Below are positions 1,398-9,588 of a stretch of DNA of 9,795 nucleotides, piece by piece (position 1 is the first letter of the stretch; every line of letters starts with the position of its first letter). A program made the position numbers and the translations under genes. The notes beneath the pieces are model-generated. The model was not told the origin of the DNA. It ran no database searches and was given only the letters and a program-made list of their open reading frames with translations. Origin of the DNA: a virus (taxonomy: Duplodnaviria; Heunggongvirae; Uroviricota; Caudoviricetes); the IMG/VR virus record IMGVR_UViG_2778261533_000002, positions 1-9,795 of that record. The stretch is one strand, 5' to 3'.

Positions 1398-1446
1398 CGC
1401 ATTCGTAATGCGAAGGTCGTAGGTTCGACTCCTATTATCGGCACCA
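1398..1446 (+). other. Attachment-site core: 3'-terminal 49 nt of a tRNA-Thr(CGU) gene (thrW-like), including the T-arm, acceptor 3' strand and CCA; not a complete tRNA
   Basis: CGCATTCGTAATGCGAAGGTCGTAGGTTCGACTCCTATTATCGGCACCA folds as anticodon stem-loop (anticodon CGT), variable loop, T-arm (TTCGACT loop) and acceptor 3' strand plus CCA. The upstream sequence does not supply an acceptor 5' strand or D-arm. Identity to E. coli thrW is recalled from memory. Confidence 0.8.
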
Positions 1447-3156: not shown

Positions 3157-3518
3157 TATGCTCCAGCCTCCGGTGCTTTTGGCATTACTGCCCAGTGAGT
3201 GATATTGACGTTTTCAAGGTCCCCGACCTGAAATGTCCACTGCCATTCTCCGGTTTCTTTTTGTCCCCAGGTGTACCAGAGAGAACGCCAACCAATTAGC
3301 CAGCCTTCTCCGTTAGCATCGAATAACAAAACACTTTCATTTGCTGGTGGCAGTTCAGTTGACACTGGTATTACTTTGTTTTCCTGTGCTGCACATTTAG
3401 CTTCAAGCGCATCGAATTTACGCACCAGGTATTCAGCATCTGTTTCATTTACTTTCAGATCTCGCGGTACACATCTCCCACGAAGAAACCCTTCCATTTC
3501 GAAAACATTCATGCGCAT
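3156..3518 (-). CDS. DUF551-like phage protein (120 aa)
   Basis: ATG at 3516-3518 is preceded by GGAG at an appropriate distance. The C-terminal segment WQWTFQVGDLENVNITHWAVMPKAPE resembles the conserved THWMPLPEPP end of DUF551 proteins, as I recall the family. First gene of the leftward operon. Confidence 0.65.
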   Translation of the reverse strand: MRMNVFEMEGFLRGRCVPRDLKVNETDAEYLVRKFDALEAKCAAQENKVIPVSTELPPANESVLLFDANGEGWLIGWRSLWYTWGQKETGEWQWTFQVGDLENVNITHWAVMPKAPEAGA

Positions 3519-3973
3519 TTGCGTAACTCCGATAACTCGTTAAAGCGTTCCATAAACATCCCGTAACAGACAACAGGGCAGAGAACGGTGCTGTCTTTTT
3601 CAGTTTGAGAGTGGCGGTGTTAGTTTCTCCACAAAACAGAGAAGAACACCTGCGGTGGCAGCCGCCCGGATGGATTGGGTTATGAGCCCGTCGTCCGGTG
3701 ATGCTCTTCTCTGTTTTGTAAAAAGAGCGGTACCAGCCGGAAGCAAGTGTACAAACTGGTACCGCCAAAGCAGTGGCTGTTGTGGTGACCGGTGCTGATC
3801 TCCGGCTTGCGGTTATTTCAGACTCTCACGGGCGTTTAATTGCCCCGCCGAACAGCTCTTTTCCGCAATAGCTGCAATGTCTTTCGCGCATCAGTCTGCG
3901 CATTCACCACAACGCTGAGAGCACTTAGCCAGTTATCTATCCGAAAGATTAACAGAACACCTTCAATTTTTAA
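3519..3973. promoter_or_regulatory. Divergent control region between the leftward (int/xis) and rightward operons; contains two large inverted repeats and no ORF
   Basis: Imperfect palindrome with 18-bp arms (3631-3648 and 3702-3719, 17 of 18 complementary) separated by 53 bp. Immediately after, a perfect 10-bp inverted repeat GCGGTACCAG/CTGGTACCGC (3727-3736 and 3756-3765) with a 19-bp spacer. A hairpin followed by TTTTT lies at about 3566-3600. Promoter hexamers were not confidently assigned. Confidence 0.4.
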
Positions 3974-4057
3974 CCACAGAACGATGAGGCTAACCGCAAT
4001 GCGTCGAATGTTTATCAGCTTAACGTTGCGAAGCTTCAGGCAGCGGCATTTTCTCAA

Positions 4058-4212
4058 CTGTCAGATTCTGACCCGTCAAAATCTGACGCATCAAAATCTG
4101 ACCCGTCAAAATTTGATGCGTCGAAATCTGGCAAAAAAGCGGGTTTTCACCCGTCAGAATCTGGCGGGGATCCGTCAGTAAAATCAAAACATGATCCGTC
4201 AGATAAAAAACC
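4058..4212. repeat. Tandem 15-bp repeats, consensus cCGTCAAAATCTGAc: five contiguous units (4058-4132) plus three degenerate CCGTCAG-initiated copies (4151, 4172, 4196)
   Basis: Direct reading: ctgtcagattctgac / ccgtcaaaatctgac / gcatcaaaatctgac / ccgtcaaaatttgat / gcgtcgaaatctggc. The period is a multiple of 3 and sits in an open frame, where it encodes DPSKS/DASKS-type pentapeptides. Confidence 0.8.
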
Positions 4213-4330
4213 TTCTCGTCCGGACGCTTCGCAACCGGACACGCAGACGGCTGAACAGGATTTTTTAACTCGCCATCCTGATGCGGTTGTATTCAGCCCT
4301 AAAAAGCGCCAGTGGGGGACGCAGGATGAT

Positions 4331-4699
4331 TTGACCTGCGCACAGTGGCTCTGGAAAAAAATCATCGCCCTGTACGAGCAGGCTGCCGAATGTGACGGCG
4401 AGGTGGTTCGTCCCAAAGAACCGAACTGGACAGCCTGGGCAAACGAAATTCGCCTGATGTGTGTGCAGGATGGTCGTACTCACAAACAAATCTGCGAGAT
4501 GTACAGCCGCGTCAGCCGCGATCCGTTCTGGTGCCGTAACGTGCTCAGCCCGTCGAAGCTGCGGGAAAAATGGGATGAGCTTTCTCTGCGCTTATCGCCG
4601 TCCGTCAGCACGTACACAGAAAAACGCGAAGACCCGTACTTCAAAGCCAGTTACGACAATGTGGACTACAGCCAGATCCCGGCAGGATTCAGGGGGTGA
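4331..4699 (+). CDS. DnaT-like (primosomal protein I C-terminal domain-like) phage replication-associated protein; coordinates are from the first canonical start (TTG), but the frame is open from 3974
   Basis: The C-terminus ...DNVDYSQIPAGFRG matches the characteristic C-terminal end of E. coli DnaT (...SEPDSQIPPGFRG, from memory). Stop at 4697-4699, immediately before the SD (AGGGGG) and ATG of the next gene. The same frame is stop-free for 119 codons upstream (3974-4330) with no ATG/GTG/TTG, so the 5' extent is unresolved. Confidence 0.6.
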   Translation: MTCAQWLWKKIIALYEQAAECDGEVVRPKEPNWTAWANEIRLMCVQDGRTHKQICEMYSRVSRDPFWCRNVLSPSKLREKWDELSLRLSPSVSTYTEKREDPYFKASYDNVDYSQIPAGFRG

Positions 4700-4701
4700 G
4701 C

Positions 4702-5190
4702 ATGAGTCTTTTGAATGACGTTCAGAAATTCATTGAAGCCCATCCGGGCTGTACTTCCGGAGACATTGCGGATGCTTTTGCAGGTTACTCACGGCAGCGC
4801 GTTCTGCAGTCAGCAAGCAAGTTACGTCAGAGTGGGCGTGTGGCTCACCGTTGTGAAGGAGATACACACAGACATTTCCCGCGCCTGACTGAGAGAGCGC
4901 AGGATCCGGAACCACAACCAGTTCGTGAAACCAGACCTGTGCGCAATTTCTATGTCGGCACTAACGACCCGCGGGTGATTTTGTGCCTGACCCGCCAGGC
5001 GGAAGAACTGGAGTCCAGGGGCTTATACCGTCGTGCTGCAACGGTGTGGATGGCGGCATTCCGTGAAAGCCACTCCCAGCCAGAACGAAACAATTTTCTG
5101 GCGCGTCGTGAACGGTGTTTACGGAAAAGCAGTAAGCGGGCTGCATCAGGTGAAGAGTGGTATCTCTCAGGGAATTACGTGGGGGCTTAA
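4702..5190 (+). CDS. PerC-family-like transcriptional regulator with an N-terminal winged-helix-like region (162 aa)
   Basis: ATG at 4702 sits 5 nt after AGGGGG; the track GTG at 4696 is less likely. The C-terminal motif AEELESRGLYRRAATVWMAAF resembles the LE.GLWRRAA.RW core I recall for PerC/Pch proteins. Stop at 5188-5190 overlaps the next start (TAATG). Confidence 0.6.
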   Translation: MSLLNDVQKFIEAHPGCTSGDIADAFAGYSRQRVLQSASKLRQSGRVAHRCEGDTHRHFPRLTERAQDPEPQPVRETRPVRNFYVGTNDPRVILCLTRQAEELESRGLYRRAATVWMAAFRESHSQPERNNFLARRERCLRKSSKRAASGEEWYLSGNYVGA

Positions 5191-5843
5191 TGAGTAATAA
5201 ATATTGCCAGGCGCTGGCGGAACTGCGGAACAAACCAGCCCATGAACTGAAGGAAGTGGGCGATCAGTGGCGCACGCCGGACAACATTTTCTGGGGAATT
5301 AACACTCTGTTTGGCCCGTTTGTTCTGGATCTGTTTACTGACGGTGATAACGCCAAATGTGCTGCGTATTACACGGCGGAAGACAACGCGCTGGCGCATG
5401 ACTGGTCAGAACGCCTTGCGGAGCTTAAAGGTGCTGCCTTTGGTAATCCCCCATACAGCCGCGCCAGTCAGCATGAGGGGCAATACATCACCGGCATGCG
5501 TTACATCATGAAGCATGCCAGTGCCATGCGTGATAAAGGCGGGCGCTATGTTTTCCTGATCAAAGCTGCCACCAGCGAAGTGTGGTGGCCGGAAGATGCA
5601 GATCATATTGCTTTTATTCGCGGGCGTATTGGTTTTGAACTGCCTGCCTGGTTTATCCCGAAGGATGAGAAGCAGGTGCCGACAGGCGCTTTCTTCGCTG
5701 GTGCTATTGCTGTTTTCGACAAGACCTGGAAGGGACCGGCAATCAGCTACATCGGGCGCTATGAACTTGAGGCATGTGGTGAGGCCTTTCTGGCGCAGGT
5801 TCGCCAGCAGGCAGAAAAACTGGTCAGGGAGATGGCGGCATGA
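5190..5843 (+). CDS. Phage Dam-type DNA N6-adenine methyltransferase (217 aa)
   Basis: ATG at 5190 is preceded by GGGGG and overlaps the upstream stop; the track GTG at 5157 is less likely. Motifs [10 protein letters not shown] and FGNPPYS (catalytic NPPY) fit the small phage Dam family found in T1 and lambdoid nin regions. Stop at 5841-5843 overlaps the next ATG (ATGA). Confidence 0.75.
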
Positions 5844-6154
5844 CGACGTTAACTCAATGCCAGCAGCAGGTGCTGGATATGCTGATTTCTTATCAGAAAG
5901 AACGTGGCTTCCCGCCAACCAATCAGGAGGTGGCAACCATGCTGGGATGCATGGCCCGTCTGAAAAAGAACAACAGCGATTTGCACGATTTATTAGTAGA
6001 TTATTATGTAGGTGGTATGACGTTTATGGCGCTTGCCCGTAAACATGGGCGTTCTGATTGCTGGGTTGGGCGCTTATTGCAAAAGGCAGAAGGCATCATT
6101 GAAGGTATGTTGATAATGTTAGAAATAGAATTGGAAATGGACTCAAATATCTAG
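5840..6154 (+). CDS. Q-like late antiterminator (QuuD/21-type short Q) with an atypical LexA-like N-terminus (104 aa)
   Basis: ATGA-coupled to the MTase. The C-terminal two thirds ([35 protein letters not shown]...AEGIIEGML) resemble my recollection of the DLP12 QuuD antiterminator. The N-terminal 36 aa ([33 protein letters not shown]) instead resemble the LexA N-terminal DNA-binding helix pair. The last 20 codons lie in AT-rich sequence. Confidence 0.5.
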
Positions 6155-6326: not shown

Positions 6327-7778
6327 TTATTTTATTTTGCTTACTATATTTGTAATAAGTGGGTCAAATTTCTCATCAATAATTTCAATATATTTTTTAA
6401 TTGCTAAAGTTCTAATTACTTCCTCCTCACATTCTGCTTCTTTAGCAATTGCTTGAGTGTAATTGTGATGATCACTAATCCCTTCCTTTTTTATTAACCA
6501 ATCAAAATCAATATGATACTCCTTGTAGAGGAATTTTTTTACTTCCTCATGTTGAAATACTTCTACTTCTGGTGGCCTATTGCCAGGGAAAGAAAATAAA
6601 TCATCTTTAATGTTTTCTCCAACATCTGCATCTCTTACGGCAATAACATTAAGGCCTGCTTTCTTGAATACCTCGACTGCTTGTCGGACTGCATCTTTAT
6701 CTCCAATATCAGTGATTTGAATGGATTTAAGAATGTCTCTCCGCTTTGCTCTAATTACTTCACTAAGTAAAACTTTTGCAAACTGGTCTTCTACGCAAAT
6801 ATGCAGCCCTTTAAACTGCCCATCAGACAGTATTGATCTCACATGAGTTGTTGAAATTCCATCTTTGATATAGACACCAGTCTGATCTCTAATAAGTAAT
6901 TTTCGTGCATCAGGAGGTAAAGCATTTAATATCACACTTGAGTGTGTTGATAATATTATTTGATGTTTTCTACGTTGACATACTTCCATTAAATATTTTG
7001 CAAATTCATACTGTGCGCTTTCATGAAGAGATGTTTCTGGTTCTTCTAGTACGAAAAGACTTTGCTCTGGAGCTGTTTCAAGCATATCAACCGTATAAAG
7101 AACTCTTCCTTCGCCAAACCCCATGTTATTTTCAGAATAAGAATACCCAAGTCTTTCAACAATACCAATTTCTGAACGACGTGCTCTATGAGAAATTCCT
7201 TGGAATGCGATATCATCATATGGATGACCTATTATTTTTGCCATCTTCAATATTACTGAATGGTCGACGCTTCTTCTCTCTGTTAAATCAAAGTCTTTAC
7301 CGCCATAAACACTTATATCTCTACGTTCTACTTTTGGAATATAGACAGTAAAACCAATGTAAAAACAGTGTCTTTCTGGTTGTCTTTTATATCCAGACCA
7401 AGAAGACTTTATGCGAGTGACAGTCACATCTTGTGTTTTCGTTGAATCATTTGTTTCATATTTATAAATGACACTGGCGTCATTATCGAAAGGGGCTGGA
7501 TCGGCTTTAGATACAGGGAAAAAATCTTTAATATATAATCTCTTATATTCACGGGCTGTAACTGGTTTTTTATATGCGCATATTGCTAACTGCCCAAGAG
7601 TGCTTTTCCCAGCGCCGTTTAGCCCTGATATTGCAGTTACCGGAAAATTTATATTTAATGTTAGTTTTTTTATTCCTCGAAATCCATTTATCTCTAGACT
7701 TTTAATTACGGAGCCAAAGTTTGAGTATCTATTTTTATCAAAGTACATGCATTTTAGTATATTTTTTATGTCTGACAT
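6327..7778 (-). CDS. ABC-type ATPase fused to a Toprim-like nuclease domain; OLD/PARIS/Gabija-like candidate anti-phage defence protein (483 aa)
   Basis: ATG at 7776-7778 has AGGAAAG upstream and an in-frame TAA two codons before it. Walker A GLNGAGKST (about aa 52-60, read directly from the DNA as GGG CTA AAC GGC GCT GGG AAA AGC ACT). Walker B plus D-loop LFVLEEPETSLH (about 241-252). H-loop ILSTHS (about 275-280). C-terminal Toprim-like signature: CVEDQFAKVLL (Glu about 330) and, about 55 aa later, AVRDADVGE (DxDxG, about 383-387). Confidence 0.7.
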   Translation of the reverse strand: MSDIKNILKCMYFDKNRYSNFGSVIKSLEINGFRGIKKLTLNINFPVTAISGLNGAGKSTLGQLAICAYKKPVTAREYKRLYIKDFFPVSKADPAPFDNDASVIYKYETNDSTKTQDVTVTRIKSSWSGYKRQPERHCFYIGFTVYIPKVERRDISVYGGKDFDLTERRSVDHSVILKMAKIIGHPYDDIAFQGISHRARRSEIGIVERLGYSYSENNMGFGEGRVLYTVDMLETAPEQSLFVLEEPETSLHESAQYEFAKYLMEVCQRRKHQIILSTHSSVILNALPPDARKLLIRDQTGVYIKDGISTTHVRSILSDGQFKGLHICVEDQFAKVLLSEVIRAKRRDILKSIQITDIGDKDAVRQAVEVFKKAGLNVIAVRDADVGENIKDDLFSFPGNRPPEVEVFQHEEVKKFLYKEYHIDFDWLIKKEGISDHHNYTQAIAKEAECEEEVIRTLAIKKYIEIIDEKFDPLITNIVSKIK

Positions 7779-8535: not shown

Positions 8536-9588
8536 ATGAAAAATACTGTAAAAATAAACAGTGTTGATTTAATCAACGCTGATTGCCTGCATTTTATTCA
8601 GTCCCTGCCTGATGATTCCATTGACCTGATTGTTACCGATCCGCCGTACTTCAAGGTGAAACCCAACGGTTGGGACAATCAGTGGAAAGGGGACGAAGAT
8701 TACCTTAAGTGGCTGGACCACTGTCTGGCCCAGTTCTGGCGGGTGTTGAAACCTGCCGGAAGCCTTTACCTGTTCTGTGGGCATCGCCTGGCATCTGATA
8801 TTGAGATCATGATGCGTGAACGTTTCAACGTGCTTAACCATATCATCTGGGCGAAGCCGTCCGGACGTTGGAATGGGTGTAATAAAGAAAGTCTGCGCGC
8901 ATATTTTCCTGCCACAGAGCGCGTTCTGTTTGCTGAACATTACCAGGGGCCATATCGCGGCAAAAGTGACGGCTATGCGGCAAAAGAAAGGGAACTCAAA
9001 CAGCACATAATGGCACCGCTGATATCGTATTTCAGGGATGCTCGTGCCGAACTGGGTATAACGGCAAAACAAATTGCCGAAGCCACAGGTAAGAAAAATA
9101 TGGTTTCCCACTGGTTTGGTGCCAGTCAGTGGCAGTTGCCGAATGAGGCTGACTATCGGAAGTTACAGGCACTGTTTTCCCGTATAGCGGCAGAGAAGTT
9201 TCAGGAACAACAACTGGAACAACCACACCACCAGCTGGTGGCATCTTATGATTCACTGAATCGCAAATATTCTGAATTGCTGGATGAGTTTAAATCTCTC
9301 CGGCGCTATTTCTCCGTATCAGTCTCCGTGCCTTATACCGATGTCTGGATGCATAAACCCGTTCAGTTCTACCCGGGTAAACATCCGTGTGAGAAACCGG
9401 CGGATATGCTCAGGCAAATAATCAATGCCAGTAGTCGACCTGGTGATCTGGTTGCTGATTTTTTTATGGGATCCGGTTCCACAATAAAAGCAGCAATGGC
9501 GCTGGGGCGTCGGGCCTTAGGTGTTGAGCTTGAGTCAGAGCGGTTTAACCAGACAGTGAAAGAGATAAACGAGCTGGTGGGGAAATAA
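8536..9588 (+). CDS. DNA methyltransferase, beta-class N6-adenine/N4-cytosine type (motif IV before motif I), 350 aa; no cognate endonuclease in the window
   Basis: N-terminal [12 protein letters not shown] (catalytic DPPY) and C-terminal [17 protein letters not shown] (AdoMet-binding FxGxG). The central target-recognition region contains an HTH-like segment ([12 protein letters not shown]). A GATC sits immediately 5' of the ATG. Confidence 0.85.

Follow-up and report, generated by a model that had tools for sequence, protein, structure and literature searches.

A start-less open frame upstream of yfdN

The window, by which we mean the whole 9,795 nt stretch of phage DNA that was analysed (IMG/VR record IMGVR_UViG_2778261533_000002), belongs to an E. 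coli prophage at thrW. The features of interest are a reading frame that stays open over 242 codons, two slivers of prophage DNA and two deletion junctions around its upstream end, an array of short repeats within it, a shorter TTG-started ORF that shares its register, and the downstream gene yfdN (Table 1). As originally predicted, the frame runs without a stop from 3974 to a TGA at 4697-4699 and contains no ATG, GTG or TTG between 3974 and 4330, where the sole near-cognate codon is CTG 4058. The translation quoted with that prediction agreed with the one we recomputed, and the two in-frame stops placed just upstream (TAA 3950 and TAA 3971) are both present, as is a TAG at 3926. The chance of 119 stop-free codons, put beforehand at well under 1 %, came to 0.0015-0.0027 from base composition and 0.0022 in 20,000 shuffles, whilst that of the same stretch without any start codon was 0.006. 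This 119-codon leader is the longest start-less one in the window (next longest 52, median 6, among 830 open segments in six frames). The start-less frame is confirmed as a real and non-random feature.

Table 1. Features at and around the start-less open frame, in window coordinates
Feature	Position	Strand	Remarks
Sliver: non-coding DNA between yfdP and the cI-like repressor gene	3619..3935	+	317 nt
Deletion junction J3	3934..3935		Microhomology TA; 1,284 bp lost
Sliver: last 19 nt of cro-like ymfT plus the ymfT-ymfL spacer	3934..3996	+	63 nt; 100 % identical to intact prophages
Start-less open frame	3974..4699	+	242 codons including stop; no canonical start before 4331
Out-of-frame ORF created by the junction	3984..4181	+	65 codons from ATG 3984, 61 codons from ATG 3999; no Pfam match
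Deletion junction J4	3987..3996		ymfL ribosome-binding site fused to O codons 76-78
O-like initiator gene segment that aligns colinearly with codons 78-313 of the intact 313-aa genes	3991..4699	+	1 nt in 709 different from the E. coli D6 allele
Iteron array, presumed phage origin inside the initiator gene	4046..4210		Encodes the SDSDPSKSDASKSD... 'linker'
A_AAA_AAG heptamer	4133..4139	+	In register with the junction ORF; a -1 slip leads into the O frame
TTG-started ORF, 122 aa	4331..4699	+	100 % identical to K-12 YfdO (b2358, CPS-53)
C-terminal tail SQIPAGFRG	4670..4696	+	Sole similarity to E. coli DnaT (SQIPPGFRG), 8/9
yfdN (PerC family)	4696..5190	+	Overlaps the remnant's stop codon; same arrangement in intact prophages and K-12

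A truncated O-like initiator gene and its deletion junctions

A megablast search with positions 3800-4750 (951 nt) as query was utilized to place the frame among 5,426 complete E. coli genomes. In 1,561 of these a single match spanned at least 80 % of the query; among the matches listed, all began at window position 3987 and lay under a gene for a 313-aa 'helix-turn-helix domain-containing protein' followed by yfdN. Such O-like genes are multicopy, with a median of two matching places per E. coli genome. The intact gene of E. coli D6 (942 nt, 313 aa) sits in a standard lambdoid early-right operon, in the order LexA-family repressor, Cro, YmfL, DUF4222, O-like gene, YfdN, Dam-like methylase and RusA. 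The window retains slivers of the order common to the intact relatives (cI - cro - ymfL - DUF4222 - O - yfdN). Positions 3991-4699 differ from the D6 allele by 1 nt in 709, and the deletion that removed the remainder of the gene must therefore be recent. The counterpart in the functional phages SfII, SfIV and Kati carries the annotation 'O protein family', 'replication protein' or 'primosomal protein'.

Protein comparisons gave the same picture. The 241-aa window product, which is 97-99 % identical to intact 313-aa proteins, matched PHROG phrog_391 ('replication initiation O-like') with E=3.2e-96, covering only positions 77-298 of the 298 in the profile, whereas the intact protein covers positions 1-298. 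The intact protein carries the Pfam winged helix HTH_36 at residues 23-70; the window product lacks HTH_36 and returned no Pfam match at E<=0.01 and no NCBIfam match. Of 2,157 homologues found in a database search, 120 were listed, the majority of these being 280-340 aa long with PF13730. We aligned 27 sequences of the family (the window and 26 homologues): MS.K(L/V) opens 25 of the homologues, the remaining one is without its first 17 residues, and the N-terminal domain is present in all 26. The window sequence enters this alignment at ...GNRNASNVYQLNV, within the wing of the winged helix. The search for an N-terminal domain in homologues that had been suggested as a check was run, and revealed a winged-helix domain of about 77 aa that the window copy has lost. 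Homologues starting at the equivalent of 4331 with unrelated DNA upstream had been named as the contrary outcome, and the opposite was found.

We are therefore highly confident that 3974-4699 represents the 3' three-quarters of a lambda-O-like initiator gene whose 5' end was recently deleted, in a decaying E. coli prophage of the SfII/SfIV/e14 type at thrW. The intact gene encodes a winged-helix DNA-binding domain (~77 aa), a repeat-encoded linker whose iteron array would form the origin, and a helical C-terminal replisome-organiser domain with a DnaT-like tail; the deletion took the start codon and the DNA-binding domain from the window copy. The latter is a gene fragment, not a functional O-like initiator. 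Without a DNA-binding domain the remnant cannot act as an initiator, and the prophage is consequently replication-dead.

Compared with the lambdoid O initiators (lambda O; phrog_391; SfII/SfIV), the intact relatives share an N-terminal DNA-binding domain, in-gene iterons, a C-terminal replisome-recruiting domain and a position in the PR operon after cro and a cII-like gene, whereas the window copy is missing the start codon and the DNA-binding domain. Unlike those initiators, the gene is followed by a PerC-family regulator in place of a P/DnaC-type loader gene, its product ends in the DnaT-like tail SQIPxGFRG, and its iterons are palindromic with 15-bp spacing as opposed to the four 19-mers of lambda.

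The resemblance to DnaT, from which the gene had first been labelled 'DnaT-like', did not extend beyond this tail. BLASTP against E. coli DnaT (primosomal protein I) aligned the last nine residues only, the two proteins having SQIP(A/P)GFRG in common and no other sequence similarity; GFRG is kept in most of the 26 aligned homologues. No DnaT chain occurred among the PDB matches of the window product, by sequence or by fold, and the product has neither the N-terminal oligomerisation domain nor the C-terminal three-helix ssDNA-binding domain of DnaT. The gene is an O-like initiator with a tail that mimics DnaT, not a DnaT homologue, and it is this tail that has given rise to database names such as 'primosomal protein'.

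To define how the gene was broken, we compared the window by BLAST with intact relatives (loci L004 and L005), which divided it into colinear pieces. Relative to these, the window has five colinear deletions separated by slivers of 59, 317 and 63 nt. Both parental sequences of every junction were recovered at 98-100 % identity together with their microhomologies, and at four of the five junctions the dinucleotide TA occurs in the microhomology (TA, GTTA, TA and TAACCG). The loss at J3 took the gene for the cI-like repressor, the PR/OR region and all but a small part of cro, leaving a repressor-less prophage. At J4, GAGGCTAACCG|TGG, containing the ymfL Shine-Dalgarno sequence and GTG start, was joined to CAGGGTAACCG|CAA, representing O codons 76-78. 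The microhomology here is TAACCG, with 9 of 10 nt matching over AGGnTAACCG, and the deletion ran between these two near-identical 10-mers. The 1,134 bp lost at J4 comprised ymfL, the DUF4222 gene and O codons 1-77.

This anatomy explains both ends of the observation. The TAA stops at 3950 and 3971 come from the ymfT/ymfL-spacer sliver, and the frame begins at 3974 because 3971 is the first in-frame stop of that unrelated cro-ymfL spacer; it is still open because the deletion is very recent and there has been too little time for decay. Of three explanations offered by the original prediction, a 5'-truncated pseudogene is the right one, the two parents of the junction having been recovered base by base. 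The remnant accounts for the puzzling ORF and, taken by itself, is a textbook pseudogene.

Iterons, SrsR boxes and the fate of the fragment

The repeat array within the remnant consists of at least six palindromic units at 15-bp spacing, namely TCAGATTCTGAC (GTCAGA-T-TCTGAC), then TCAAAATCTGAC, together with degenerate copies. Its translation in the O frame is SDSDPSKSDASKSDPSKFDASKS. The translation quoted earlier for this Ser/Asp/Lys-rich stretch was correct, but its description as a plausible linker was imprecise, as the stretch is a translated iteron array. The linker is disordered in the predicted structure (pLDDT <50, residues 32-89), and in the family alignment the number of repeats varies from about one to eight among homologues whilst the flanks are conserved. 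Gene O of lambda contains the origin iterons, to which the N-terminal domain of O binds. By analogy with this arrangement, and given the variation in iteron copy number among homologues, the array is most likely the phage origin.

A second identity for the same repeats emerged from work on K-12. Of all sites in the K-12 genome, the LysR-type regulator SrsR (YgfI) binds most strongly in the yfdO/yfdP spacer, where it footprints four 11-bp boxes (TCAGATTTTGa and variants), and it activates transcription of yfdONMLK (PMC9181523). The published boxes TCAGATTTTGA match window units 4061-4116 on the minus strand; the copies at 4076-4086 and 4091-4101 are exact, and those at 4061, 4106, 4121, 4154 and 4184 are near matches. 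By sequence, the SrsR boxes are these iterons seen from the opposite strand. Reasoning from K-12, the former iterons in the window would act as binding sites for SrsR, the activator of the yfdO operon. The K-12 box array is a fossil of the iterons of a presumed phage origin, and it follows that a host LysR regulator was matched to, or co-opted, the iterons of a phage. This equivalence of SrsR boxes and phage iterons is one of two side results of wider reach, the other being the common end-point of many independent deletions described below.

The K-12 gene yfdO, in the cryptic prophage CPS-53/KplE1, is the closest parallel to the window remnant. It has the identical 122-aa TTG-started ORF, the iteron/SrsR boxes, yfdN downstream and a start-less open frame across its 357-nt yfdO-yfdP spacer, and its truncation point matches that of the window within 4 nt (TAACCG). 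Over 709 nt, the window and K-12 yfdO with its upstream spacer show six nucleotide differences. The two remnants nevertheless arose from different deletions in differently placed prophages (CPS-53 lies at argW). K-12 lost about 2.8 kb in a deletion of its own, with the start of yfdP as left partner (CATCA|TAACCGC) and microhomology TA, whereas in the window the left partner is the ymfL ribosome-binding site, the microhomology is TAACCG and cI and cro were removed by a separate deletion. The assembly collection has 11,393 blocks in which an ORF identical to YfdO is called. K-12 YfdO has already been named a defective replication protein O in the literature; the window remnant is of the same kind and hence ordinary. 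Three misreadings are to be avoided here: taking the 122-aa call 'YfdO' at face value, labelling the product 'primosomal protein/DnaT', and treating what the repeats encode as a 'linker'. 'DnaT-like' should be replaced by 'O-like initiator' and 'linker' by 'origin iterons'.

Two alternatives were considered next. A sequencing or assembly artefact, in which the gene is really intact and the junction a mis-assembly of repeated prophage sequence, might be suspected on two grounds: the window's own junction was not found in the 5,426 complete E. coli genomes, IMG/VR, GTDB representatives or JGI metagenomes, so that it has been seen in this window alone, and the presence of several O-like copies per genome can break short-read assemblies. 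However, five colinear deletions with clean microhomologies and 98-100 % identical flanks are unlike chimeric joins, and analogous truncations occur at the same site in independent complete genomes; we consider an artefact highly improbable. The original prediction had also raised expression by frameshifting from an overlapping frame. Translation would begin at ATG 3999 or ATG 3984 in the junction ORF, proceed for 45-50 codons in the +1 frame, in which this ORF reads the iterons, slip by -1 at 4133-4139 and continue in the O frame to 4699. The heptamer is a canonical dnaX-type slippery site in the correct register, a small GC hairpin (CGGGT/ACCCG, 4140-4153) lies directly 3' of it, and ATG 3999 sits 9 nt after the ymfL Shine-Dalgarno GAGG. 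Against this, the upstream ORF arose only by chance when the deletion formed its junction, and since that junction was not found elsewhere in the collections searched, the ORF cannot have been selected. Furthermore, K-12 reads AAAAAAT at the heptamer, the KK dipeptide is not conserved across the family, the hairpin abuts the heptamer with zero spacer, PR is deleted, and the product would still be without a DNA-binding domain. The in-register heptamer is a genuine coincidence, and there is very little probability that it reflects a designed mechanism.

A third alternative concerns the present role of the fragment rather than its origin, and complements rather than contradicts the truncated-pseudogene reading. 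Under it, the gene has been domesticated: the 122-aa fragment would be a putative host-beneficial protein and the 357 nt upstream its promoter or regulatory region, with the former iterons as activator sites for SrsR. Several observations are consistent with this. The ORF is identical to K-12 YfdO, and deletion of yfdO lowers the survival of K-12 in H2O2 (PMC3105296); SrsR acting on the iteron boxes activates the yfdONMLK mRNA in K-12 (PMC9181523), and the boxes are kept in the window; AGGA at 4323-4326 precedes TTG 4331 by 4 nt; and the fragment holds a helical domain predicted to fold with confidence (pLDDT 83-93, residues ~120-210). However, the counterpart of TTG 4331 is an internal Leu codon in intact genes, and gene callers emit this ORF after any kind of break in the O gene. 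A single nt separates the window allele from an intact gene, leaving no time for selection, and the published yfdO phenotypes may be polar effects on downstream genes. PR is deleted, and no sigma-70-like promoter was found within 3500-4800. Initiation at TTG 4331, the second explanation of the original prediction, corresponds to the K-12 annotation of yfdO and draws plausible though indirect published support from the mRNA and the deletion phenotype. The 122-aa TTG product may still be expressed from the window, and we regard domestication as possible but on balance doubtful.

A shared breakpoint at O codons 76-78

The point at which the window copy was truncated recurs in other prophages. At least seven independent rearrangements, with seven different partners, end within one 9-nt stretch, GGGTAACCG (window 3987-3996): those of the window, K-12 CPS-53, K-12 e14, E. 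coli isolate NRZ100214 (L008) and the IMG/VR loci L093, L129/L140 and L132. A 300-nt probe centred on the site was intact across it in 1,575 of the complete E. coli genomes. CPS-53-type copies retain codon 78 onward, whereas the e14 fragment ymfN/oweE is a complementary remnant of the same gene family that ends at the same GGGT|AACC. It differs from the window copy in keeping codons 1-77, with the N-terminal domain, and losing everything downstream; its partner is the large terminase gene (...CAGGGT|GATGG, microhomology GGT). In the literature, the EcoGene names oweS/oweE matched nothing but the English word 'owes'. In NRZ100214 the break (...GGGTAAC|AGCGC) creates an in-frame fusion to a tail-fibre gene.

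The remaining three left partners came from a search of the collections for TAACCGCAATGCG... preceded by any base but the intact G, and were a cro 3' end (L093), another cro type (L129/L140) and a site near the yfdR 3' end (L132). The same search design found no junction at any of three further TA positions in the gene. Loci L065 and L143 carry an independent -1 frameshift (GGG to GG) at the breakpoint site. For a gene of 942 nt, seven distinct junctions inside 9 nt depart far from uniformity; the targeted searches were biased toward the site. Truncations elsewhere in the gene also exist, including the fusion proteins P0004 and P0006 and an iteron deletion (P0016), and the allele at locus L009 breaks elsewhere, at probe position 99.

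All junctions in the window and all junctions at the shared site fit a break directly 3' of a T, often within TAAC/GTTA; across the 14 partner sites of junctions with known parents, the break fits T|A in 12 and T|G in two. We considered whether GGGTAACCG might be a hot spot of site-specific breakage or recombination, at which prophages of the e14/CPS-53/SfII type lose one end of their replication gene again and again; we put this forward tentatively and think it unlikely to be correct. If true, it would imply a host or phage nicking or recombination activity on the wing-coding DNA beside the origin, driving prophage domestication.

A number of known activities were compared with the site and set aside. 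As a pseudo-att site of the thrW integrase, the breakpoint site (site D) fits the anticodon-stem-loop core at 11 of 17 positions, but 24 sites in an 18-kb prophage do so equally well, against 23 expected from shuffles. For a Pin/Gin-type invertase, D matches the pix half-site at 3 of 12 positions (by eye), and the real pix of L009 lies about 60 nt from its junction. Restriction-type palindromes (GGTAACC at D, GATATC at the cro site) are absent from the other partners, and the ends misfit the predicted cuts; the Dcm/Vsr site CCAGG at D is not specific to the breakpoint site. Comparison by eye with the targets of IS5 (YTAR), IS10 (GCTNAGC) and IS608 (TTAC), and with the integron GTTRRRY, RuvC, Xer and gyrase consensus sequences, gave none that fits all partners. 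The production of in-frame fusion proteins was likewise rejected as a common feature: in L093 the cro 3' end is in frame with O codon 78, yet cro has an upstream stop, L129 is out of frame, and L130 (K-12 type) and L132 are without a usable start. Should the shared breakpoints stem from a specific enzymatic break, they would represent a defined mechanism of prophage inactivation; CAAGGCAATCGT is an example of a synonymous recoding of the breakpoint site.

Rearrangements converging on the O-like gene

The O-like replication-initiator gene was found to be broken inside the same 9 nt, at the site GGGTAACCG, by seven independent rearrangements whose partners differed. A GGG to GG frameshift in two further loci (L065/L143) also fell within these 9 nt, and control searches for junctions at three other positions in the O-like gene found none.

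Relative to intact relatives, the prophage in the window carried five deletions, of 1058, 785, 1284, 1134 and 2613 bp. Between the first four, very short colinear remnants (59, 317 and 63 nt) were left in place, an arrangement reminiscent of template switching in series or of recurrent deletions centred on TA. The fifth (5945-5948) joined part of a LexA-like gene to the antiterminator-Q region, producing a chimeric ORF and accounting for the loss of rusA, kilA-N and DUF968.

Coordinates of features in the window and of O-like gene junctions (L-handles are loci in other genomes or prophages)
Feature	Position	Strand	Remarks
Integrase genes	236-1339; 1461-2624	minus	on either side of tRNA-Thr piece
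tRNA-Thr piece	1398-1446		3' 48 nt
Deletion junctions	3565; 3622; 3935; 3996; 5948		microhomologies TA; GTTA; TA; TAACCG; T
O-like gene breakpoint	3987-3996; L002 7587; L007 2651; L008 2656; L093 7410; L129/L140; L132
Direct repeat	3999-4008; 4116-4125		perfect, 10 nt
Iterons matching SrsR boxes	4061-4116	minus (boxes)
DnaT tail motif	4670-4696
Chimeric ORF	5840-6154		product of fifth deletion
ATP-dependent nuclease	6327-7778	minus	annotated so in relatives
DNA methyltransferase	8536-9588	plus	350 aa

Gene fusions were also observed at the breakpoint in other prophages. One IMG/VR prophage (L093, 7333-8118) had the 3' end of a cro-like gene in frame with O codon 78 (…SDLRPD/NRNASN…), although no fusion protein is expected because its cro has a stop upstream. 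In the E. coli isolate NRZ100214 (L008, 2417->5156), a tail-fibre gene lay in frame behind the N-terminal 79 codons of O, and this fusion is annotated as a single 'tail fiber domain-containing protein' (WP_086711726.1).

Iterons and the DnaT-like tail

The iterons of the presumed former phage origin corresponded to the published boxes for SrsR (YgfI), a host LysR-type regulator, in the K-12 yfdO/yfdP spacer. The passages on SrsR in the source paper refer to the bound DNA simply as the yfdO/yfdP spacer and do not term the boxes iterons (PMC9181523). This correspondence suggests that repeats of a presumed phage origin are bound by a host LysR regulator. The core iterons were flanked by a direct repeat, ATGCGTCGAA, and a database allele (P0016; …GNRNAS/KSGKK…) was missing exactly the inter-repeat DNA, leaving an initiator gene without iterons.

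Alignment of homologues (A5) identified the DnaT tail motif (S)QIPxGFRG as the C-terminus of O-like initiators in the family, and no P/DnaC-type loader gene was present downstream of those carrying it. The tail may mimic DnaT and thereby recruit the host helicase-loading machinery.

Possible cargo genes and the thrW end

The nuclease and methyltransferase genes, situated between a Q-antiterminator remnant and the lysis genes, may represent moron or defence cargo. At the thrW end, the tRNA-Thr piece extended from the anticodon stem onwards with its 5' half absent, and an ARAGORN search of the window for tRNAs found none. The same thrW att site appears to carry a second integrative element in tandem.
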